Shown here: in pieces, positions 765-11,026 of the stretch
How the letters are laid out: each line of letters begins with the position of its first letter
How positions within the stretch are numbered: the stretch's first letter is position 1
Source of the DNA: a virus
UHGV virus genome: UHGV-0116345
Direction: 5' to 3' (one strand)
DNA length: 12,449 nt
Notes under the pieces: model-generated
The model's input: the letters and a program-made list of their open reading frames with translations, nothing else
The model's database searches: none
Told to the model about the DNA's origin: nothing
Made by a program: the position numbers and the translations under genes

Positions 765-1037
765 TCATCTTGCTGTCAGTTGTTTGGATTTCCGGTAGCC
801 TGCCGCGTAAAGAGCTACGTTCGGAAGACAAGTTGAACCTTCATATTTTCTGGTCAACGTTGTCAGAGTTATCACTTCTGCTCTCATTGCTGGTTTGAGC
901 TTGCATTGCAAGACCACTCGTGAAGGGGTTGGCCTGTGTAGCTTGTCGGAGCTGATCGCCTCCTGACTTTGCAGATTTGCGCGACGAGCTCTACGGCGAG
1001 AAGCTGCGGTGCCTTTAAATTCTGTTTTTCTGGACAT
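765..1037 (-). CDS. N: N-like transcription antitermination protein (small basic protein with N-terminal arginine-rich motif), 90 aa
   Basis: ORF in track (765..1109); start refined to ATG 1035-1037 with GGGAGG RBS 5 nt upstream. N-terminus MSRKTEFKGTAASRRRARRANLQ is an arginine-rich motif typical of lambdoid N proteins. It is the first gene downstream of the nutL-like site on the leftward transcript. Call is by position and composition, not sequence identity to lambda N. Confidence 0.55.
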   Translation of the reverse strand: MSRKTEFKGTAASRRRARRANLQSQEAISSDKLHRPTPSRVVLQCKLKPAMRAEVITLTTLTRKYEGSTCLPNVALYAAGYRKSKQLTAR

Positions 1038-1136
1038 GGATTCCTCCCGAATAAACTTTGGCGATGCAATCTCGAAGCTCCTCCTGAGACGGTTGCTTCG
1101 GCATTGCATCCCACAGCTTATGTGGTTGGGTGATCT

Positions 1137-1181: not shown

Positions 1182-1230
1182 TGCCAGTCTGTTCCATTTG
1201 GCTTCCAGCGTCCTGCTGACGGTTAAATAG

Positions 1231-1330
1231 TACGATATGTACTTTACAAGATCAATACAATTTGTTGTAAGTTGGCGTGGTTTTTTATAACGCTTTGTAT
1301 TTAATAGTGTTGTTTTTTAGCGTGGATGTA
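1231..1330 (-). promoter_or_regulatory. OL/pL region: leftward early promoter and operator(s); contains CTTGTAAAGTACATAT (minus-strand reading of 1235-1250), which shares motifs with OR
   Basis: Non-coding AT-rich interval between the terminator at 1441-1470 and nutL/N. One candidate minus-strand -35 TTACAA / 18-nt spacer / -10 TAAAGT. The motif CTTGTA...AAAGTACATAT recurs at OR (3534-3555). Exact promoter and operator boundaries not resolved. Confidence 0.45.
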
Positions 1331-1440
1331 TTGCCTCGGCGATGTAAGGAGAGATCAGAATTGCGTGGTTTAGTGGGTTGCATCTATTTATTTTTCAATA
1401 AATATAATTGGTTATGTGTTTTTAGGTGGGCGAACGTGAG

Positions 1441-1470
1441 GCAAAGAAAACCCGGCGCTGAGGCCGGGTT
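1441..1470 (-). terminator. Rho-independent terminator closing the cI / two-gene cassette transcript
   Basis: Stem cccggc (1451-1456) / gccggg (1463-1468), 6-nt loop, followed on the minus strand by UUUUCUUUG. Lies immediately 3' of the stop of the 250-aa gene (1474-1476). Confidence 0.7.
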
Positions 1471-1473
1471 GTA

Positions 1474-2226
1474 TTATGCTGCAAGTCTCTTAACCCAAGT
1501 CTCTCTTTTGGAGAATGGTAGAACTTGGCTTGATTCATGGAAGAGTAAGGAGAGTTGTTGCATTTGATCACCAATTGCTTCGCTGTCTATAACAACAAAT
1601 CTGTTGTTATACTCCTCACTTGAAGCTTTAAGATCAATTAGTTTCCCAAGCAATGAGTAAGCACTATTCCAGCTTCCTCCGTGTTTCACGCTTGATGTAA
1701 AAACGTATTTAGGTATGTCGGTTTTTATTGTTACAGGGACGGTAATTTGATGTCCACTCAAGCCATATACGTTTTCACGAAGAGAAAGTGCGTCTCTAAG
1801 CTCTGTGTGATATAGATAATCAATAACCATACTTTCAAACTTTTCAGCTTGAACTGGCTGATACCAGTCTAACGACAAAGTTGATGCGAGTATACCAGCT
1901 CTAATTATGTTCGATGTAATCGCACCGACATCCTTTTCTGTTGCCCAAGCAATGATTTCTCCTCGAGCATTGAGTTCTGCGCCTTCTTTAAGCAGTAATT
2001 GTCGTATCTCATCAAGTCGTTTTTTGGTAAGCGAGATCCCTCTTGCCTCCATATTCATTAAGGCATCGCATCTGTCACTAACTAAATACCTACCATTGAC
2101 TTCACGGATAAAGGCACCGACATGCTCTCCATCATCACAGTAAGTGAATGGACTGATAATTCTCAAGGTCTTGCCTATTGGATGGCATTCGAAACCTAGT
2201 TGTGAGATCACTGTTGAGCACATCAT
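1474..2226 (-). CDS. Unknown protein, 250 aa; downstream gene of the two-gene cassette at the rexAB-equivalent locus (candidate phage-exclusion/defence component)
   Basis: ORF in track. Start ATG overlaps the stop of the upstream gene (ATGATG / TGA overlap at 2223-2226), indicating translational coupling. No transmembrane segments and no catalytic motif I can assign. No resemblance to RexA/RexB by recollection. Confidence 0.7.
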   Translation of the reverse strand: MMCSTVISQLGFECHPIGKTLRIISPFTYCDDGEHVGAFIREVNGRYLVSDRCDALMNMEARGISLTKKRLDEIRQLLLKEGAELNARGEIIAWATEKDVGAITSNIIRAGILASTLSLDWYQPVQAEKFESMVIDYLYHTELRDALSLRENVYGLSGHQITVPVTIKTDIPKYVFTSSVKHGGSWNSAYSLLGKLIDLKASSEEYNNRFVVIDSEAIGDQMQQLSLLFHESSQVLPFSKRETWVKRLAA

Positions 2227-2780
2227 ATTCCAAACCCCATTTGCCCCGACTCATCTTCAAGCGGTAAAGGTATTCTCCCAGAGTAAGTTATGTTCAGATG
2301 TTTACAGAAGTAATTCCAATACCCTACCAGGTCATCTGGGTTTATGTCATCTTCGATTGGAAACGCTATTCTATCACTATAGTATCCAGCTTCTTCATAG
2401 TATACATGGTAGTGAGCACCGTAAATGATATCTTGGTACTTCGGATGATCGACCTTGTAACTATTCGTGTGTTTGTCAAAGTGATAGGTATCTACCGCGA
2501 AAACCCTCTTGTTATGATAGAAAGCAATAATATTTATTTTAGGGTAAGAAATCGGGTCATCAGGTTCTGAATCCTGATCTGGTTTCCATTTCAGTTCAAA
2601 CTTTAGCCCTTGTATAGGTATACAATCCTCATCCAAGGGGATGATATGGGCTTGTAGCCACATATCAGAGCGACTTGGTTTCTGTTTCCATTTAACGCCA
2701 GAAAAGTTAACTATTTTTTTACAATAAAGTACTTTATCAACTTCTACTTGGCTTGGCTGATAATCATCTATTTTTGCCAA
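2223..2780 (-). CDS. Unknown protein, 185 aa, acidic and His/Tyr-rich; upstream gene of the two-gene cassette at the rexAB-equivalent locus
   Basis: ORF in track; the first in-frame initiator after the upstream stop is TTG at 2778-2780 (next ATG is 39 codons in), so the start is uncertain. Codon usage is atypical for enterobacteria (about ten ATA Ile codons and several AGA/AGG) and the interval is visibly AT-rich versus flanking phage genes. Function unknown. Confidence 0.65.
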   Translation of the reverse strand: MAKIDDYQPSQVEVDKVLYCKKIVNFSGVKWKQKPSRSDMWLQAHIIPLDEDCIPIQGLKFELKWKPDQDSEPDDPISYPKINIIAFYHNKRVFAVDTYHFDKHTNSYKVDHPKYQDIIYGAHYHVYYEEAGYYSDRIAFPIEDDINPDDLVGYWNYFCKHLNITYSGRIPLPLEDESGQMGFGI

Positions 2781-2797
2781 TGTTTACCGCCCTGTAA

Positions 2798-2828
2798 ATT
2801 GTAGATAAAAGTGGTTTCATCACCCAAA
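2798..2828 (-). promoter_or_regulatory. Candidate sigma70 promoter for the cassette in the cI-cassette junction (-35 TTGGGT, 18-nt spacer, -10 TACAAT on the minus strand)
   Basis: Hexamers read directly on the minus strand overlapping the cI stop. Not validated; the cassette may also simply be read through from PRM. Confidence 0.3.
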
Positions 2829-3479
2829 CGTCTCTTCAGGCCATTGGCTGGCGATAACTTTCCCCACAACGGAACAACTCTCATTGCATGGGATCATTGG
2901 GTATTGTGGGTTTAGTGGCTGTAGAAACACCTGACCGCTATCCCTGATCAGTTTCTTGAAGGTAAATTCATCACCACCAAGTCTGGCTATGCAGAAATCG
3001 CCGGGCTCAACAGCTTGCTCAGGGTCAACCAGAATTAACATCCCGTCAGGAAAGCTGGGTTTGGAACCTGTTGGTGCGGTCATTGAGTTACCTTCAACCT
3101 CAAGCCAGAATGCAGAGTCACTGGCTTTTTTGGTTGTGCTTACCAATCTCTCCGCATCGCCTTTGGTAAAGGTTCTGAGTTCTGGAGAGAACATCCCAGC
3201 CTGAACATGAGAAAAAACAGGGTACTCATATTGTTTTTTAACTGGGGCCGATGAGTATTCGCCAACAGGTGAAAATGTCCCGTCGTGGTTGAATGATATG
3301 TTATCAATACCAAGGTATTTAAACACCACACCAATATCACTAAGAGATGGATGACGAGATCCGCGCAACCAGTGTCCAATCCCACCCTGCGTCATACCTA
3401 GCTCTTCGGCTAACTTCTCTTGAGTTATGCCGAGCTCTTTCATTCTGGATCTAGCCAGTTCATACCATTTCATTTTCAT
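2820..3479 (-). CDS. cI: CI-type prophage repressor: novel N-terminal HTH domain fused to a lambda-cI-like C-terminal oligomerisation/autocleavage domain
   Basis: C-terminal ~135 aa ([29 protein letters not shown]...[12 protein letters not shown]) match lambda cI as I recall it, including the Ala-Gly autocleavage site within VQAGMF. The N-terminal ~85 aa are unrelated to lambda cI but HTH-like. Start is either ATG 3479 (MKMKW, possibly leaderless from PRM) or ATG 3473 (AAGGA 7 nt upstream). Confidence 0.9.
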
Positions 3480-3590
3480 GTCCTTATTATTACGCTCTGT
3501 ACTGGAACCATCCATGCACAATGTGTATTTTTACTTGTATTCGCAAAGTACATATTGTATTTTTTTATTCGTGTTTACTATGGAGGGCAT
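3480..3590. promoter_or_regulatory. OR region: divergent PRM / PR promoters and operator sites between cI and cro
   Basis: 110-bp AT-rich divergent intergenic region. Repeated TGTA/TACA-containing elements (CTTGTATTCGCAAAGTACATAT at 3534-3555; ATGTGTATTTTTAC; ATTGTATTTTTTTAT). Candidate PR -35/-10 pairs are TTGTAT / TATTTT or TTTACT / TATTGT. Operators do not resemble lambda's, consistent with the non-lambda cI N-terminus. Confidence 0.6.
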
Positions 3591-3806
3591 ATGAGCAACC
3601 TACGAAAATATCGAGAGTCACTGAATATCTCTCAAACAACACTTGCTAAGGCAGTTGGATGCACACAGGGAGCTATCGGACATTGGGAATCTGGTCGTCG
3701 CTTCCCAGACCTTAAAACATGCCGTGCTCTTGTTGCGTGCCTAAACAAGTTAGGCGCAAAAGTCAGTCTTGATGACGTGTTCCCGCCGGAACACAAAGCC
3801 GCTTAA
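3591..3806 (+). CDS. cro: Cro-like HTH (XRE-family) repressor, 71 aa
   Basis: ATG 3591 preceded by GGAGGG. Translation MSNLRKYRESLNISQTTLAKAVGCTQGAIGHWESGRRFPDLK... has a clear HTH. Divergent from cI across the operator region. The longer ORF in the track (3420..) is an upstream extension lacking an RBS. Confidence 0.85.
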   Translation: MSNLRKYRESLNISQTTLAKAVGCTQGAIGHWESGRRFPDLKTCRALVACLNKLGAKVSLDDVFPPEHKAA

Positions 3807-3816
3807 TAAGCGGATC

Positions 3817-3862
3817 CGCTCTTTGTAACAACGGACATTCGTCCTACGTCGCTGAAAAGCGA
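3817..3862 (+). promoter_or_regulatory. nutR-like site: boxA (CGCTCTTTG), interbox hairpin (GGAC-ATTC-GTCC), boxB (TCGCTGAAAAGCGA)
   Basis: Read directly. Co-linear with the nutL-like element; the interbox hairpins differ in sequence but both remain self-complementary. Located just downstream of cro, as nutR is in lambda. Confidence 0.6.
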
Positions 3863-3947
3863 GTTCCAAGATATCTGACCAACTAAGGCCATATGCGTTT
3901 CCACGCATACCTTTCAACTAACTATTCACTATTGGAAATCTTAAGAA

Positions 3948-4244
3948 ATGGAAAGAACAAGTTACAGCAAACTATCACAGCGCGACGTTGATCGCGCAGA
4001 AACAGATTTACTCATCAACCTGTCAGCGATTACCCAGCGCGGTCTGGCAAAGATGATTGGCTGTCATGAATCGAAGATAAGCAGAACGGACTGGAGATTT
4101 ATTGCTTCGGTCTTGTGTGCTTTCGGAATGGCATCAGACATCAGTCCGATTAGCAGGGCTTTTAAGTATGCGCTTGATGGACTCACCAATAAAAAACGCC
4201 CGGCGGCAACCGAGCGTTCTGAACAAATCCAGATGGAATTCTGA
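3948..4244 (+). CDS. cII: CII-like transcriptional activator, 98 aa
   Basis: C-terminus LTNKKRPAATERSEQIQMEF matches the lambda CII C-terminus as recalled. The N-terminal part is diverged but contains an HTH-like segment. Position between cro/nutR and O. Confidence 0.85.
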   Translation: MERTSYSKLSQRDVDRAETDLLINLSAITQRGLAKMIGCHESKISRTDWRFIASVLCAFGMASDISPISRAFKYALDGLTNKKRPAATERSEQIQMEF

Positions 4245-4276
4245 GGTCATTACTGGATCAATCCACAGGAGTCATT

Positions 4277-5131
4277 ATGACAAATACAGCAAAAATACTC
4301 AACTTCTGCAGAGGTAACTTTGCCAAACAGGAGCGTAATGTGGCAGATCTCGATGATGGTTACGCCAGACTATCAAATATGCTGCTTGAGGCTTATTCAG
4401 GCGCAGATCTGACCAAGCGACAGTTTAAAGTGCTGCTTGCCATTCTGCGTAAAACCTATGGGTGGAATAAACCAATGGACAGAATCACCGATTCTCAACT
4501 TAGCGAGATTACAAAGTTACCCGTCAAACGGTGCAATGAAGCCAAGTTAGAACTCGTCAGAATGAATATTATCAAGCAGCAAGGCGGCATGTTTGGACCA
4601 AACAAAAACATCTCAGAATGGTGCATCCCTCAAAACGAGGGAAAATCCCCTAAAACGAGGGATAAAACATCCCTCAAATTGGGGGATTGCTATCCCTCAA
4701 AACAGGGGGACACAAAAGACACTATTACAAAAGAAAAAAGAAATAATAAAAACACTATGTCCGAAAGTGTCCGGACGGAGTGTGAAAAATCATCTGACCG
4801 TCACGAAGAAACCGACAAGGCATTCGAGGAAATATTCTGGTGTGCAGGCATGCGGAAAGCCGGGAAAAAAAACGCAGCTTCGGCATTCAGAACACAGTTC
4901 AGGGAATGGCGTAAAACTACCAGGGGTACGGCAAGCGAGTTTGCCACGATGCTGGCAGAAGACATCGCATGCAGGAATGGTAAGCAGTTCGGATTCGACA
5001 GGTTGTTACCATCGAGCTACCTGAACGGTCAGCGCTGGAACGACGAGAAGCCAGAAACTATTCAACCACAATCCAAACCATCATCCGCAATCACCGTATC
5101 GAAAACTGGCTACGTGTTTTTCGACAGGTGA
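4277..5131 (+). CDS. O: Replication initiator O (lambda-like N-terminal ori-binding domain, divergent C-terminal domain), 284 aa
   Basis: N-terminal ~170 aa (MTNTAKILNF.RGNFA.QERNVADLDDGYARLSNMLLEAYSGADLTKRQFKVLLAILRKTYGWNKPMDRITDSQLSEITKLPVKRCNEAKLELVRMNIIKQQGGMFGPNKNISEWCIPQNEGKSPKTRDKTSLKL...) match lambda O as recalled. The C-terminal third differs and the downstream partner is a primase-helicase, not lambda P. Confidence 0.9.
   Translation: MTNTAKILNFCRGNFAKQERNVADLDDGYARLSNMLLEAYSGADLTKRQFKVLLAILRKTYGWNKPMDRITDSQLSEITKLPVKRCNEAKLELVRMNIIKQQGGMFGPNKNISEWCIPQNEGKSPKTRDKTSLKLGDCYPSKQGDTKDTITKEKRNNKNTMSESVRTECEKSSDRHEETDKAFEEIFWCAGMRKAGKKNAASAFRTQFREWRKTTRGTASEFATMLAEDIACRNGKQFGFDRLLPSSYLNGQRWNDEKPETIQPQSKPSSAITVSKTGYVFFDR
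4624..4755. repeat. ori-lambda-type replication origin inside O: four ~19-21-bp iterons (ATCCCTCAAAACGAGGGA-like) followed by an AT-rich unwinding region
   Basis: Iterons read directly at about 4624-4644, 4645-4665, 4669-4688 and 4691-4710, each an imperfect palindrome TCCCTCAAA..GAGGGA. AT-rich tract 4711-4755 (acaaaagaaaaaagaaataataaaaacac). Confidence 0.85.
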
Positions 5132-5134
5132 ACC

Positions 5135-5242
5135 ATGAAATCAAAAATCAAATCGTTACTGGTCGCTGGTTATAACCACGGCTGGTTAAGTATTTCGTTT
5201 GTCGATTTCTGGTTTAAAAATCTCAATCTGAGGGAATCATGA
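5135..5242 (+). CDS. Possible micro-ORF (35 aa, MKSKIKSLLVAGYNHGWLSISFVDFWFKNLNLRES) bridging O and the primase-helicase
   Basis: ATG 5135 is 3 nt after the O stop, with AGGTGA 5 nt upstream; its stop TGA (5240-5242) overlaps the ATG of the next gene. Below the ORF-track length cut-off; coding status unproven. Confidence 0.2.
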   Translation: MKSKIKSLLVAGYNHGWLSISFVDFWFKNLNLRES

Positions 5243-7119
5243 CTCCAAGTGAACTTAGCTACCTGCTTTGGGCGCAGGTTGACAGGGTGGCTCCACACCT
5301 GTTGCCAAACGGCAAGAAAGAGGGGCATGAGTGGGTTGCCGGTAACGTCAACGGTGACAAGGGAAACAGCCTTAAGGTCAACCTTAGCGGCAAGAAAAAA
5401 TGGGCTGATTTCGCTGAGGGAGACGGCGGTGACATGCTTGATTTGTGGATGGCATGTCGTGGAATTAACCTGCATCAGGCTATGCAGGAAGCGAAAGCAT
5501 TTCTCGGTATCAAGGATGACGATCACCATTTCGATGCCAGACGTGAGAAGAAATTCTCCAGACCTGATCGCAAGAAAATCGCCCGCTACGTTACCAGAAC
5601 AGAATCCCATCTTGAGTACCTGCAATCGCGTGGCATATCGCCAGAAATCGTAAAGCGCTACGAGGTTGTCAGCGGCAAGGTGTGGAATGGAGAGCGGGAA
5701 CTGGATGCTCTGGTGATTCCGTACAAACGCGATGGTGAGTTGTTGCAGGTCAAGCGAATCAGCACTGAGCGCCCGGACGGGAAGAAAGTCATTATGGCAG
5801 AAGGTGATTGCGAACCTTGCCTGTTCGGATGGCAGGCTCTGGACGCTGGCGTGAGGGCGGTTGTGCTTTGCGAAGGCGAAATTGATTGTATGAGCTATGC
5901 GCAATACGGCATCTCGGCGTTATCCGTGCCGTTTGGTGGCGGGAAAGGCGCTAAGCAACAGTGGATTGAGTTTGAGTATCACAACCTCGACAGGTTTGAG
6001 GAAATATTCATCTCGATGGACGTTGATGATGTTGGTCGTGAAGCCGCAAGGGAAATCGCAAGCCGACTCGGTGAACATCGTTGCCGTCTTGTTACTCTGC
6101 CGTACAAAGACATCAACGAATGCCTGATGAACGGTGTTACCGAGGATGAAATCTGGCAGTACATCGGCACGGCATCCTACTTCGATCCTGAAGAACTCTA
6201 CAGCGCGCGAGAGTTTTACCAGGACACTATCAACGCTTTCTACGGCAAGCAGCAGTATCTGTTTAATCCACCGTGGGAATCTCTGGCAGATAAATTCCAG
6301 TTCCGTGAGGCAGAGTTGACGCTGGTCAATGGGGTGAACGGTCACGGAAAAACGGAGGTTGTCGGGCATATGGCACTTGAGGCAATGCGTCAGGGTGTGA
6401 AGACGTGCATCGCGTCACTTGAGCTGAAGCCTGGTATTCTCCTTAAGCGCCTTACCCGTCAGGCGACGTGCTGCAAGATGCCGCCAGTGCTGGAAATTGA
6501 CTCTGCATTTAAATTTTATGACGAAAGACTTTGGGTGTTTGGCCTGACCGGAACGGCGAAAGCCGACAGGCTGATCGAAATATTCGACTACGCTCGCCGC
6601 CGATACGGGATCCAGTTATTCATCATCGACAGCCTGATGAAATGTGGCATAGGCGACGATGACTATAACGGGCAGAAGGCGTTTGTTGACTCGATTTGCG
6701 ACTTCAAAAACAAAACAAACTCCCACGTCATTCTCGTTACTCACTCGCGAAAAGGAGACAGCGAAGAAAAACCAACCGGGAAAATGGACGTAAAAGGCTC
6801 TGGAGCGATAACAGACCTGACAGACAACCTTTTCATCATCTGGCGTAACAAGGCTCGCGAGAGAGCGTTACAGAGAGTTCAGAGTGGTGAAAAGATGTCA
6901 GAGAAGGACGAACAGCTACTGGCGTCTCCTGCATCTGTTTTGATGCTTGAAAAACAACGTAACGGCGAAGGTTGGGAAGGTGGTGTCCCGTTGTTCCTTG
7001 ACGAGCAATCGCACCAGTTCCTGCAACTTGAATCAGGATCGCCATATAGCTACATCGCCAATATGCCGAAATCGGAATATGACGAGGCGTGGCGACAGGA
7101 AAACGTGACGGAGTATTAA
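5239..7119 (+). CDS. Bifunctional DNA primase / replicative helicase (TOPRIM primase domain + DnaB/RecA-like ATPase with Walker A GVNGHGKT and Walker B FIIDS), 626 aa
   Basis: ATG 5239 with GAGGGA RBS. TOPRIM-like acidic motifs (VVLCEGEIDCMSYAQ ... ISMDVDDVGREAA). Walker A at LVNGVNGHGKTEV and Walker B at LFIIDSLMK in the C-terminal half. Occupies the position of lambda P. Confidence 0.85.
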   Translation: MTPSELSYLLWAQVDRVAPHLLPNGKKEGHEWVAGNVNGDKGNSLKVNLSGKKKWADFAEGDGGDMLDLWMACRGINLHQAMQEAKAFLGIKDDDHHFDARREKKFSRPDRKKIARYVTRTESHLEYLQSRGISPEIVKRYEVVSGKVWNGERELDALVIPYKRDGELLQVKRISTERPDGKKVIMAEGDCEPCLFGWQALDAGVRAVVLCEGEIDCMSYAQYGISALSVPFGGGKGAKQQWIEFEYHNLDRFEEIFISMDVDDVGREAAREIASRLGEHRCRLVTLPYKDINECLMNGVTEDEIWQYIGTASYFDPEELYSAREFYQDTINAFYGKQQYLFNPPWESLADKFQFREAELTLVNGVNGHGKTEVVGHMALEAMRQGVKTCIASLELKPGILLKRLTRQATCCKMPPVLEIDSAFKFYDERLWVFGLTGTAKADRLIEIFDYARRRYGIQLFIIDSLMKCGIGDDDYNGQKAFVDSICDFKNKTNSHVILVTHSRKGDSEEKPTGKMDVKGSGAITDLTDNLFIIWRNKARERALQRVQSGEKMSEKDEQLLASPASVLMLEKQRNGEGWEGGVPLFLDEQSHQFLQLESGSPYSYIANMPKSEYDEAWRQENVTEY

Positions 7120-10412: not shown

Positions 10413-11026
10413 TGCGGCTAACTCCAGTATTCAGCATGGTTAACTTCATTAATGACGCGCACTTTCGCCGCGTATGGAGACACCCGAAGAAAACCATCAA
10501 CTCTAGCCAGAAAGCATGGGTTCATTACATGTTACAGGTATGGGGCAAGGTTAATACCGGAGATTGCTCTCCAGGTGGTGCAATTAACGTTATCGGTCGT
10601 CTGATGATTCGCAGTCAGTGGAGCGATGACAAGGCTAAGCAGATAGAGTCTGTCGTCATGCGCCTGTACGAAGAAGATGGGCTGCGCGGAGATGAGCTAT
10701 ACAAGAAAGCTCGCGAACTGGTCATTCCTCAATCATCGTTTAGCCACATCATCACTCTCGCCAAAGAATCAGATGATGCGGCTTTCGTTGAACGTGTGAT
10801 GGTTAAAACGTTTCACCGTGAAAGCCCTGTCCGCGATGTAGCTATTAAGCGATATTGCAATCGCAATTGCACGCAAGATATAGCCAGGATTATTTCTTAT
10901 ATAACAGGTGCTGATATTCAGTATTGTCGTAAGCGAGTGGTGTGGTGTGAGAAAGTGCTGGAGTCAGAAATGTTTTATGCAATGAAACGAGAATTGGAGA
11001 AAGAATTTCCATTAATAGCGGCCTGA
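10412..11026 (+). CDS. Putative late-gene antiterminator (Q-like), 204 aa
   Basis: Position between rusA/ylcG and the lysis cassette, followed by a promoter-like region and intrinsic terminator (PR'/tR' architecture). Cys-containing C-terminal region (CNRNC...C...C). Start ATG 10412 with GGGAGG upstream (track ORF begins at TTG 10382). Not similar to lambda Q as recalled, so the family is unassigned. Confidence 0.5.
   Translation: MRLTPVFSMVNFINDAHFRRVWRHPKKTINSSQKAWVHYMLQVWGKVNTGDCSPGGAINVIGRLMIRSQWSDDKAKQIESVVMRLYEEDGLRGDELYKKARELVIPQSSFSHIITLAKESDDAAFVERVMVKTFHRESPVRDVAIKRYCNRNCTQDIARIISYITGADIQYCRKRVVWCEKVLESEMFYAMKRELEKEFPLIAA

Follow-up and report, generated by a model that had tools for sequence, protein, structure and literature searches.

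A VT2-Sakai-type lambdoid prophage repressor gene that is a domain-level mosaic relative to lambda cI

Engineered hybrids have shown that the N- and C-terminal modules of phage repressors are separable and work when recombined in the linker, and natural hybrids are functionally plausible on this ground. Ptashne's laboratory reportedly described 434/P22 recognition-helix swaps as well as mixed dimers. A further construct fuses the lambda N-terminal domain to the C-terminal domain of phage 186 (PMC8053113). All of these are laboratory constructs, whereas the cI of the VT2-Sakai (Sp5) type is a natural and widespread allele. Its homology to lambda CI has been described as high in the C-terminal and low in the N-terminal part, and cross-immunity with lambda has been reported (Fattah et al., 2000, as cited in PMC10742460); PMC2629481 and PMC8951638 also count as support. 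The allele type corresponds to the "Clade I" CI of Llarena et al. (2022), and databases and literature have contained the gene, its operators and its half-lambda character since 1999–2000. Among lambdoid repressors, domain shuffling is mosaicism of the textbook kind, and one more example has little discovery value. The practical relevance lies elsewhere, as the repressor governs the induction of Sakai-type Stx2 and Stx1 prophages and the identical allele occurs in the probiotic strain Nissle 1917.

The stretch analyzed here (the window) comprises 12,449 nt of the UHGV virus genome UHGV-0116345; its features are listed in Table 1. On the minus strand, an open frame spans positions 2820–3521 (ORF listing). 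The protein read from the ATG at 3479, which sets the residue numbers used below, matches Pfam HTH_3 over residues 11–58 (E = 1.9e-10, 41 bits against a cutoff of 23) and Peptidase_S24 over residues 87–209 (E = 1.1e-28), and by these matches it is a two-domain S24-type repressor. The start codon is uncertain. An alternative ATG at 3473, preceded by AAGGA 7 nt upstream, would yield 217 aa; homologues begin at the corresponding position (MKWY..) and VT2-Sakai cI is annotated from there with 217 aa, making this start better supported than the ATG at 3479. In the PGAP annotation, the protein begins at 3515 and has 231 aa. Across the entire window, positions 2820–3230 included, Rfam gave no family at the gathering score.

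Table 1. Coordinates of the repressor gene, its parts and the surrounding control and cargo elements in the window.
Feature	Position	Strand	Details and evidence
cI repressor gene	2820–3479	-	219 aa from ATG at 3479; ORF, Pfam, DNA identity
HTH DNA-binding domain and first linker part, residues 1–83, VT2-Sakai/phage L class	3231–3479	-	identity to class members
Mosaic joint, Q83/Y84	3230–3231	-	BLASTN block edge and codon alignment
Cleavage-site region and C-terminal domain module, Y84–G219	2820–3230	-	common to lambda, HK97 and mEp332 cI
A94–G95 codons, predicted autocleavage site (lambda A111–G112)	3195–3200	-	alignment to lambda cI
S132 codon, predicted catalytic serine (lambda S149)	3084–3086	-	alignment
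K175 codon, predicted general base (lambda K192)	2955–2957	-	alignment
Putative OR3 (TATTACGCTCTGTACTG), overlaps putative PRM	3488–3504		identical to VT2-Sakai AP000422 operator; fits TACRNNNTGTAYT
Putative OR2 (ATGCACAATGTGTATTT)	3514–3530		identical to VT2-Sakai annotation; pattern scan
Putative OR1 (AAGTACATATTGTATTT), overlaps putative PR	3546–3562		identical to VT2-Sakai annotation; pattern scan
cro, 71 aa, all-HTH_3 type	3591–3806	+	Pfam HTH_3, E = 4e-12
Two cargo genes co-oriented downstream of cI	1474–2780	-	185 aa (2223–2780) and 250 aa (1474–2226); ORFs
Conserved segment bordering the cargo slot on its far side	1349–1470	-	91% identical to lambda 35709–35827, beside the rexB end
Putative OL3 (TATAACGCTTTGTATTT)	1286–1302		one mismatch to VT2-Sakai operator
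Putative OL2 (CAATACAATTTGTTGTA)	1253–1269		one mismatch to VT2-Sakai operator
Putative OL1 (TAGTACGATATGTACTT)	1228–1244		identical to VT2-Sakai annotated operator

The gene matches VT2-Sakai/Sp5 cI (AP000422, BAA94122) from end to end, with 98.5% DNA identity and 216 of 217 identical residues; the eight DNA changes in the gene leave a single residue difference (S vs G near the C-terminus). The 98.5% identity extends over positions 2822–3600. Homology to VT2-Sakai is continuous at 96.7% across 2822–4288, cro and cII included, and is found again at 714–1471, taking in cI, OR, cro, cII, N and OL; to the right of cII, the replication genes are unlike those of VT2-Sakai. Both cI and OR are 98.5–100% identical in VT2-Sakai, the Stx1-converting phage, Stx2 II, Nil2, 2851, ev207, ev017 and PhiR57_1, with a fully identical cI in ev207, ev017, PhiR57_1 and Escherichia coli Nissle 1917, and the same allele type is carried by phage 1717 and the PA series. 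Of the 5426 complete E. coli genomes, 776 (~14%, about one in seven) carry the full gene together with OR. Full-length near-identity of cI, the operator set and cro are the sequence characters of the VT2-Sakai/Sp5 immunity type, and all three are found here. Judged by these matches, the gene is an ordinary, already described prophage repressor of that type, and the new immunity specificity proposed in the preliminary description gives way to a known one; an end-to-end match to one known repressor was the outcome by which that description itself would have it judged.

Compared with lambda, a single block of homology was recovered by BLASTN, running from position 3230 down to 2819 with 385 of 412 identities (93.4%), and no DNA homology was detected on either side of it, including the part of the gene upstream of nt 3230. 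In the codon alignment, DNA identity to lambda changes from 39% before the joint to 93.4% after it (Fisher p = 2e-52). The joint lies in the interdomain linker, which is four residues shorter than that of lambda, 10 residues before the Ala-Gly site; Y84, where identity begins, corresponds to Y101 of mature lambda CI. VT2-Sakai cI shows the same joint when compared with lambda. The 32 nt following it are identical across all seven E. coli-phage alleles, save one base in E212. Synonymous divergence is saturated in the N-terminal part and only 0.37 in the C-terminal part, a contrast that requires recombination and supports the reading of this gene as a domain-level mosaic relative to lambda cI with a sharp joint in the linker. 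The half-lambda repressor is thus real, as well as ordinary and already known. Of the joint predicted in the preliminary description, the interval nt 3210–3240 holds, while the break falls at codon 83/84, just before the codons 85–90 given there, and the motif reads QYEYPVF rather than EYEYPVF.

The lambda-like C-terminus and the Ala-Gly cleavage site described previously are both borne out. Residues 84–219 agree with lambda 101–236 at 135 of 136 positions (BLASTP against J02459), the sole change being lambda W129 to L. The autocleavage and oligomerization domain of lambda is present as a whole. The 26 synonymous changes against one non-synonymous change in this module (dS 0.37, dN 0.003, dN/dS ~0.01) indicate purifying selection. 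Solved structures are 99% identical to the C-terminal part, which matches the lambda cI 101–236 structure 8gmu at E = 3e-89 and 3bdn at E = 2.6e-96; lambda cI is also represented by structures 1F39 and 2HNF. The scissile bond A94–G95 sits in the same context, VQAGMF, as in lambda. An HTH_3 domain, a Peptidase_S24 domain with the Ser-Lys dyad and an Ala-Gly bond in the linker, the characters of LexA/cI-type autocleaving repressors, all occur in this protein, and the near-complete identity of the module suggests that self-cleavage would be stimulated by RecA*.

The N-terminal part (residues 1–83) shares ~21% of its residues with lambda cI. VT2-Sakai-type phages carry it unchanged (100% identity), and the repressors of Salmonella Oslo/SPN9CC, ST64T (L-type c2) and Erwinia Midgardsormr38 are 44–53% identical to it. 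When searched with phmmer, this part recovered structures of the lambda repressor N-terminal domain (E = 4.5e-4 to 3e-3); the Pfam and PDB matches together settle its fold class, and by them it is a distant homologue of lambda cI within the same HTH_3 family. Its earlier characterization as unrelated to lambda was accordingly overstated. The domain is without the first ~16 residues of lambda, N-terminal arm included. Lambda Q33 and Q44 have their aligned counterparts in Q20 and Q31, the acidic residues E34 and D38 of lambda HTH helix 2 correspond to E21 and E25, and identity around the HTH amounts to 14 of 40 residues.

A comparison of ten repressors revealed two N-terminal and two C-terminal classes. 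Each N-terminal class is found with each C-terminal class, joined at one and the same position, and on this pattern cI mosaicism is routine domain shuffling. HK97 cI, a candidate for a third N-terminal type, was rejected because HK97 and mEp332 cI are lambda-type throughout (98% in the N-terminal part). The C-terminal alleles are not grouped by N-terminal type: Louie differs by 37 nt from the window and by 24 from HK97, and E212 shows differences at 0 of 249 positions in the N-terminal part and at 13 of 408 in the C-terminal part. This lack of clustering points to continuing exchange. Among the closest known systems are the cI proteins of the Salmonella phages epsilon34, g341c, SPN9CC and vB_SosS_Oslo, homologues that are likewise 217 aa long, collinear over their full length and alike in N-terminal class (48%), linker motif and C-terminal class (80%), although a different operator specificity is predicted for them; Villafane et al. 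are cited for this likeness. Since dS is saturated in both halves, these genes are old relatives and not recent exchange partners.

The preliminary description had a lambda-type domain fused to a foreign DNA-binding domain, a direction that the comparison does not establish, as the C-terminal domain is 80% identical to Salmonella phages of the same N-terminal class and 65% identical to TL-2011c. Lambda cI could itself be the recombinant, a tentative reading with a minor share of the probability, in which the module is native to the VT2-Sakai/epsilon34-like lineage and was acquired by the lambda N-terminal lineage; the label "lambda-type C-terminal domain" would in that case reflect naming history and not origin. 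Oslo and SPN9CC, whose C-terminal domains are 80–81% identical, share the N-terminal class of the window and run collinear with it, linker PVK.Q(Y/F)EYP included, whereas identity is only 64–65% to TL-2011c, the closest lambda N-terminal relative (56–62%). Searches at the DNA level gave the same order, with Oslo aligning over the whole C-terminal part at 76% and TL-2011c-type phages over only 57% of it at 72%. However, these distances are unrooted and come from ten sequences, Oslo- or TL-2011c-type genes may have swapped C-terminal domains themselves, and a third donor is equally possible. Moreover, the C-terminal DNA of Oslo is 75.7% identical to the window and 74.8% to lambda, as expected whichever lineage received the module.

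The operators were located by transfer of the VT2-Sakai annotation combined with a consensus scan. Four of the six putative sites are identical to those of VT2-Sakai and two differ by 1 nt, and the pattern TACRNNNTGTAYT matched nine times against 2.0 expected, eight of the nine matches falling on the six sites. Operators and promoters are labeled "putative" in the VT2-Sakai record itself. The promoter layout follows from that annotation and from reading of the sequence; a generic sigma-70 scan did not recover PR and PRM, and an inverted-repeat finder with a 6-nt seed returned none in OR or OL.

Gene order (OL, cargo, cI, OR, cro, cII) and the cooperativity surface are the same as in lambda; the operators, their spacing and Cro differ, and rexAB is replaced. 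Lambda-type operators (TATCACCGC..GTGATA) were absent from OR and OL at up to three mismatches, the single match, at position 10900, being at chance level. The half-site is AAGTACA here and TATCACC in lambda. Measured centre to centre, the OR sites lie 26 and 32 bp apart and the OL sites 25 and 33 bp, unlike the 23–24 bp of lambda, and pairwise cooperativity of the lambda kind is thus an assumption. Lambda Cro gave no alignment with the cro product at E <= 100, and cro is paralogous to the N-terminal domain of cI (35% identity, E = 9e-13), in line with the earlier view that cro and the operators are non-lambda. When set beside the imm-lambda phages (lambda, HK97, HK542, HK544, mEp332), the locus shares the C-terminal domain and differs in N-terminal domain, operators and Cro; known members are at least ~98% identical in the N-terminal domain, as against 21% here.

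The gene very probably encodes the maintenance repressor of a VT2-Sakai/Sp5-type lambdoid prophage, mosaic relative to lambda through an old exchange. In the proposed mechanism, the HTH_3 domain (residues about 1–70) would bind 17-bp dyad operators (AAGTACA-N3-TGTACTT). OR, between cI and cro, and OL, upstream of N, hold three such sites each, and their occupancy would switch off PR and PL. Residues 84–219 would contribute the Ala94–Gly95 site, the Ser132/Lys175 dyad and the contacts for dimers, tetramers and octamers; as the module is the same as that of lambda cI, the protein should dimerize, bind cooperatively and cleave itself with RecA stimulation. The shorter linker and the replacement of W129 by Leu may alter the rate of cleavage or the cooperativity. 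DNA binding, cooperativity, RecA-dependent cleavage and promoter layout are here predicted from likeness to described systems. On this account, the old exchange (dS about 0.37) joined the C-terminal module to a different N-terminal class, its crossover falling within the flexible linker immediately ahead of the conserved cleavage-site region, and the conserved C-terminal DNA still recombines among cI alleles.

Functionally, the repressor could be cross-immune with lambda and not heteroimmune, through residual similarity of the recognition helices or through mixed oligomers formed by the identical C-terminal domains. Such cross-immunity is unlikely, notwithstanding the report of Fattah et al. 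(2000), as cited in PMC10742460. Lambda CI shifts VT2-SA operators in EMSA with an apparent KD of 3.7–6.4 uM, and both the aligned glutamines with the partial identity around the HTH and the almost identical C-terminal domains would favor cross-immunity. On the other hand, these affinities are 10–25 times weaker than for lambda OR1 and OL1 and alike for every heterologous site tested, Stx2 I included, which makes the binding look near-nonspecific. The unlike half-sites, the lack of any lambda-like operator in OR or OL and the 21% identity of the N-terminal parts also speak against it. Cross-talk with lambda-type repressors by way of the shared C-terminal domain, if any, would touch many strains given the frequency of the allele among E. 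coli genomes.

A related and similarly improbable idea is that co-resident prophages form mixed dimers or oligomers through the shared module, coupling their switches, and that the conserved DNA serves as a recombination anchor. Mixed oligomers could form because the module is 135/136 identical and pooled across at least two common E. coli immunity types. Heterodimers would then titrate repressor, hetero-cooperative binding or looping between unlike operators would be possible, and SOS induction would be synchronized between co-resident prophages, the coupling passing through the C-terminal module rather than through N-terminal cross-recognition. The conserved DNA would anchor the swapping of immunity modules and of defence cargo downstream of cI.

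It is very improbable that the gene has no current function and is decaying within a cryptic prophage. The identical Nissle 1917 allele does reside in a prophage whose integrase is truncated and which contains an IS element; this prophage is described as defective and non-inducible (PMC5987069), so that induction behavior may not be observable in every host. Yet the open frame is intact, dN/dS relative to lambda is ~0.01 in the C-terminal part, the protein is 0–1 residue changes away from alleles of viable phages (ev207, PhiR57_1, VT2-Sakai), and the operators, cro and cII are all intact. Bury et al. (2018; PMC5987069) described a Nissle 1917 "phage repressor (pr)" gene as protective against lambda as well as Stx phages. 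Its equation with the present cI was rejected: the qPCR and cloning primers of that study map to 3903–4271, which is cII, and the paper is therefore silent on this repressor.

Vertical descent without recombination, the C-terminal part frozen by purifying selection and the N-terminal part evolving fast under selection for new operator specificity, is hardly credible and effectively refuted by the dS contrast already: C-terminal domains of the family are generally better conserved than N-terminal ones, as between window and Oslo (80% vs 48% residue identity, dS saturated in both), but protein-level selection cannot hold synonymous sites at 93% DNA identity, synonymous divergence drops from saturated to 0.37 within one codon, on its other side the homology ends precisely with the stop codon, and the two domain classes occur in every combination.

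The window offers a clean teaching example of in-gene joints in interdomain linkers, in both cI and O. A second teaching point is the conserved gene end as the border of a variable cargo slot. The cI stop codon marks the end of homology to both lambda and VT2-Sakai, and the conserved C-terminal DNA forms one edge of the slot downstream of cI. Here, a gene pair matching Pfam DUF6978 (weakly) and DUF1828 occupies the position of lambda rexA–rexB, whereas VT2-Sakai carries H0093/H0092; PADLOC assigns the pair to the candidate system PDC-M24A (E = 5e-4) and PDC-M24B (E = 5e-10). At the far end of the slot, the segment conserved with lambda contains a terminator-like hairpin at 1470–1449.

The cI product, 219 residues long when read from the ATG at 3479, carries an HTH_3 domain (residues 11-58, E = 1.9e-10) followed by Peptidase_S24 (residues 87-209, E = 1.1e-28), and with cro, cII and N the gene makes up a standard lambdoid immunity region. 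The ATG at 3473 is the likeliest conserved start, since Salmonella and Erwinia phage homologues begin with MNWY or MKWY at this position, AAGGA lies 7 nt upstream and VT2-Sakai cI is annotated from the equivalent site. The ATG at 3479 lies about where transcription from the putative PRM (-10 at 3491-3486) would be expected to start, so that the VT2-Sakai annotation and the sequence together make a lambda-like leaderless start possible there. The 231-aa form given by PGAP would start within OR2.

Features of the early region surrounding cI
Feature	Position	Strand	Remarks
Nmad5 gene	80-763	minus	227 aa; full-length Nmad5 (nucleotide modification associated domain 5), E = 6e-71
N-peptide gene	765-1109		left of cI
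OL	1228-1302		three putative operators
Terminator-like hairpin	1470-1449	minus	after the cargo pair
250-aa cargo gene	1474-2226	minus	co-oriented with cI; DUF1828; PDC-M24B, E = 5e-10
185-aa cargo gene	2223-2780	minus	co-oriented with cI; weak DUF6978; PADLOC PDC-M24A, E = 5e-4
cI ORF	2820..3521	minus	ATGs at 3479 and 3473
OR	3488-3562		three putative operators
OR2	3514-3530		adjoins putative PRM -35
cro	3591-3806		divergent from cI; 71 aa; HTH_3
cII	3948-4244		Phage_CII; beyond cro
Terminator-like hairpin	4193-4220	minus	strong; inside the cII 3' end
O	4277-5131	plus	replication protein
Primase-helicase gene	5239-7119		626 aa; Toprim + DnaB-like

Direct comparison with lambda (J02459) reveals a gene of two parts. 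Of the 136 residues at 84-219, 135 are those of lambda cI, the sole difference being Leu in place of lambda W129, and the DNA shares a single block of homology (window 3230 down to 2819; 385/412 identities, 93.4%), on either side of which similarity to J02459 is not detectable. Before the joint, 21% of residues and 39% of nucleotides are identical and synonymous divergence is saturated; after it, the codon alignment gives dS = 0.37 and dN = 0.003 (26 synonymous changes and one non-synonymous change). The contrast is significant for DNA identity (Fisher p = 2e-52) and for synonymous sites (p = 1e-7). On these alignments an origin of the gene by recombination is required, because selection at the protein level would be unable to keep synonymous sites so similar. 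The event was not a recent acquisition from lambda itself.

The joint falls between Q83 and Y84 (nt 3231|3230; Y84 corresponds to Y101 of mature lambda repressor), within the interdomain linker and 10 residues ahead of the Ala-Gly bond A94-G95 (nt 3200-3195), while S132 and K175 align with the lambda dyad S149 and K192. The preliminary description had recognized correctly both the lambda-like C-terminal domain with its Ala-Gly site and the mosaic nature of the gene relative to lambda. Its nucleotide range for the joint (3210-3240) holds, whereas its codons (85-90) lie slightly too far downstream, and the motif it read as EYEYPVF is QYEYPVF. It also considered the N-terminal part unrelated to lambda cI. 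Although roughly the first 16 residues of lambda cI, with the N-terminal arm, are missing and the linker is shorter by 4 residues, this part matches lambda repressor headpiece structures (phmmer E = 4.5e-4 to 3e-3) and shares 14 of 40 residues with lambda around the HTH, which marks it by sequence as distantly homologous to the N-terminal domain of lambda cI.

The hybrid is already known and very common. In a megablast search of the phage collection, 102 records match 2780-3600, with 100% identity to ev207, ev017, PhiR57_1 and PhiR63_2. The whole gene and OR are 98.5-98.6% identical in VT2-Sakai, Stx1-converting phage, Stx2 II, Nil2, 2851, Stx2a_WGPS8 and the PA series, and occur in full in 776 of 5426 complete E. 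coli genomes, including at 100% identity Nissle 1917 and the type strain ATCC 11775. The VT2-Sakai record labels the product "CI protein; similar to bacteriophage lambda CI" and lists three putative operators per side. The protein belongs to "Clade I" of Stx-phage CI, with 61% overall identity to lambda CI (Llarena et al., 2022; PMC8951638), and its high C-terminal and low N-terminal homology to lambda CI, together with cross-immunity with lambda (Fattah et al., 2000), is recounted by Sedhom and Solomon (2023; PMC10742460). The same split characterizes the epsilon34 repressor, among whose N-terminal relatives VT2-Sa and Nil2 were named (Villafane et al., 2008; PMC2629481). Given these matches and this literature, the observation is prior art, and the specificity proposed as new is that of VT2-Sakai.

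Ten repressors, their N- and C-terminal parts classed separately, place the gene in a wider pattern. N-terminal class A comprises lambda, TL-2011c, HK630 and Erwinia Eho49 (42-64% mutual identity), and class B the window, Louie, Oslo, SPN9CC, ST64T (L-type c2) and Erwinia Midgardsormr38 (42-53% between distinct members, 94-98% in near-identical allele pairs), with 17-32% between classes. C-terminal class 1 unites lambda, the window, Louie, Oslo, SPN9CC and TL-2011c (60-99%), and class 2 HK630, ST64T, Midgardsormr38 and Eho49 (54-83%), with 37-45% between them. All four combinations occur, and in each, similarity restarts shortly ahead of the (Y/F)P..S.VQAG cleavage-site region; the window cI exemplifies a routine shuffling of domains in which the joint stays within the linker. 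The C-terminal domain shared by lambda and the window is 80% identical to those of Oslo and SPN9CC, which carry the window's N-terminal class, and 65% to that of TL-2011c, which carries lambda's; lambda may have been its recipient.

In a set of seven alleles from E. coli phages, the C-terminal sequences cluster independently of the N-terminal type: that of Louie, whose N-terminal part is of VT2-Sakai type, differs by 37 nt from the window and by 24 from HK97. In E212 cI (L006, 701-1396) the 249-nt N-terminal part is identical to the window, while 13 of 408 C-terminal sites differ (chance of all 13 being C-terminal about 0.002, by our own estimate), in patches matching lambda. This patchwork of window-like and lambda-like variable sites suggests gene conversion in the shared domain between immunity types, and exchange among cI alleles is continuing.

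Identity to the lambda module and the VT2-Sakai annotation point to a mechanism in which cI dimers would occupy the six operators by means of their class-B HTH domain and shut off PR and PL. OR2 adjoins the putative PRM -35, and the acidic E21 and E25 occupy the positions of E34 and D38 in lambda, which makes positive autoregulation plausible. With its unchanged C-terminal domain the repressor should dimerize, bind cooperatively, perhaps with looping between OL and OR, and undergo RecA-stimulated cleavage by S132/K175 at A94-G95.

The three OR operators of VT2-Sakai and its OL1, each putative in that record, recur unchanged in the window, and OL2 and OL3 each differ from their VT2-Sakai counterparts by one base. 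The core pattern TACRNNNTGTAYT has nine matches in the window against 2.0 expected, eight of them on the six sites. Cro and the operators are indeed non-lambda, as had been proposed: Cro does not align with lambda Cro and is instead 35% identical to the N-terminal domain of the window's own cI, and a pattern scan found no lambda-type operator in OR or OL. Centre-to-centre spacings are 26 and 32 bp in OR and 25 and 33 bp in OL, the short one separating OR2-OR3 on the right and OL1-OL2 on the left; lambda, despite an identical cooperativity domain, has 23-24 bp. In EMSA, lambda CI showed apparent KDs of 3.7-6.4 uM on VT2-SA operators versus 0.21-3.1 uM on its own (PMC10742460). Since these values are weak and alike across all heterologous sites, cross-recognition is not regarded as established.

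Homology to lambda and to VT2-Sakai stops at the cI stop codon. At the position of lambda rexA-rexB follow two genes, the 250-aa one with PHROGs 2017 and 1960 (function unknown); together they resemble a candidate anti-phage system of two genes that the prophage would express along with cI. In Nissle 1917, ev207 and ev017 the pair likewise comes after cI, whereas the cargo of VT2-Sakai and lambda is different. Beyond it, a 122-nt island (1349-1470) enclosing a terminator-like hairpin is 91% identical to lambda DNA adjoining the rexB end, so that the conserved cI 3' end and the terminator segment bracket a variable cargo slot. Just past N, the leftward early operon contains the Nmad5 gene.

The Nissle 1917 "phage repressor (pr)", which according to Bury et al. 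(2018; PMC5987069) protects K-12 from lambda and Stx phages, is not cI: its primers map to 3903-4271, covering cII and its flanks, and the published effect therefore belongs to a CII-family activator and an oop-like terminator region. The hairpin within cII, placed like the oop RNA terminator of lambda, lies in a region 98% identical to lambda, for which Rfam returned no family. The O gene is a second in-gene mosaic at a domain boundary, with a joint near 4743. Its origin-binding part (residues 1-155) is identical to lambda O at 153 positions, and the DNA is 98.4% identical over 4182-4743; homology to the Nissle 1917 prophage also ends at 4743. The last 129 residues have no relationship to lambda O, and a primase-helicase gene follows in place of lambda P.
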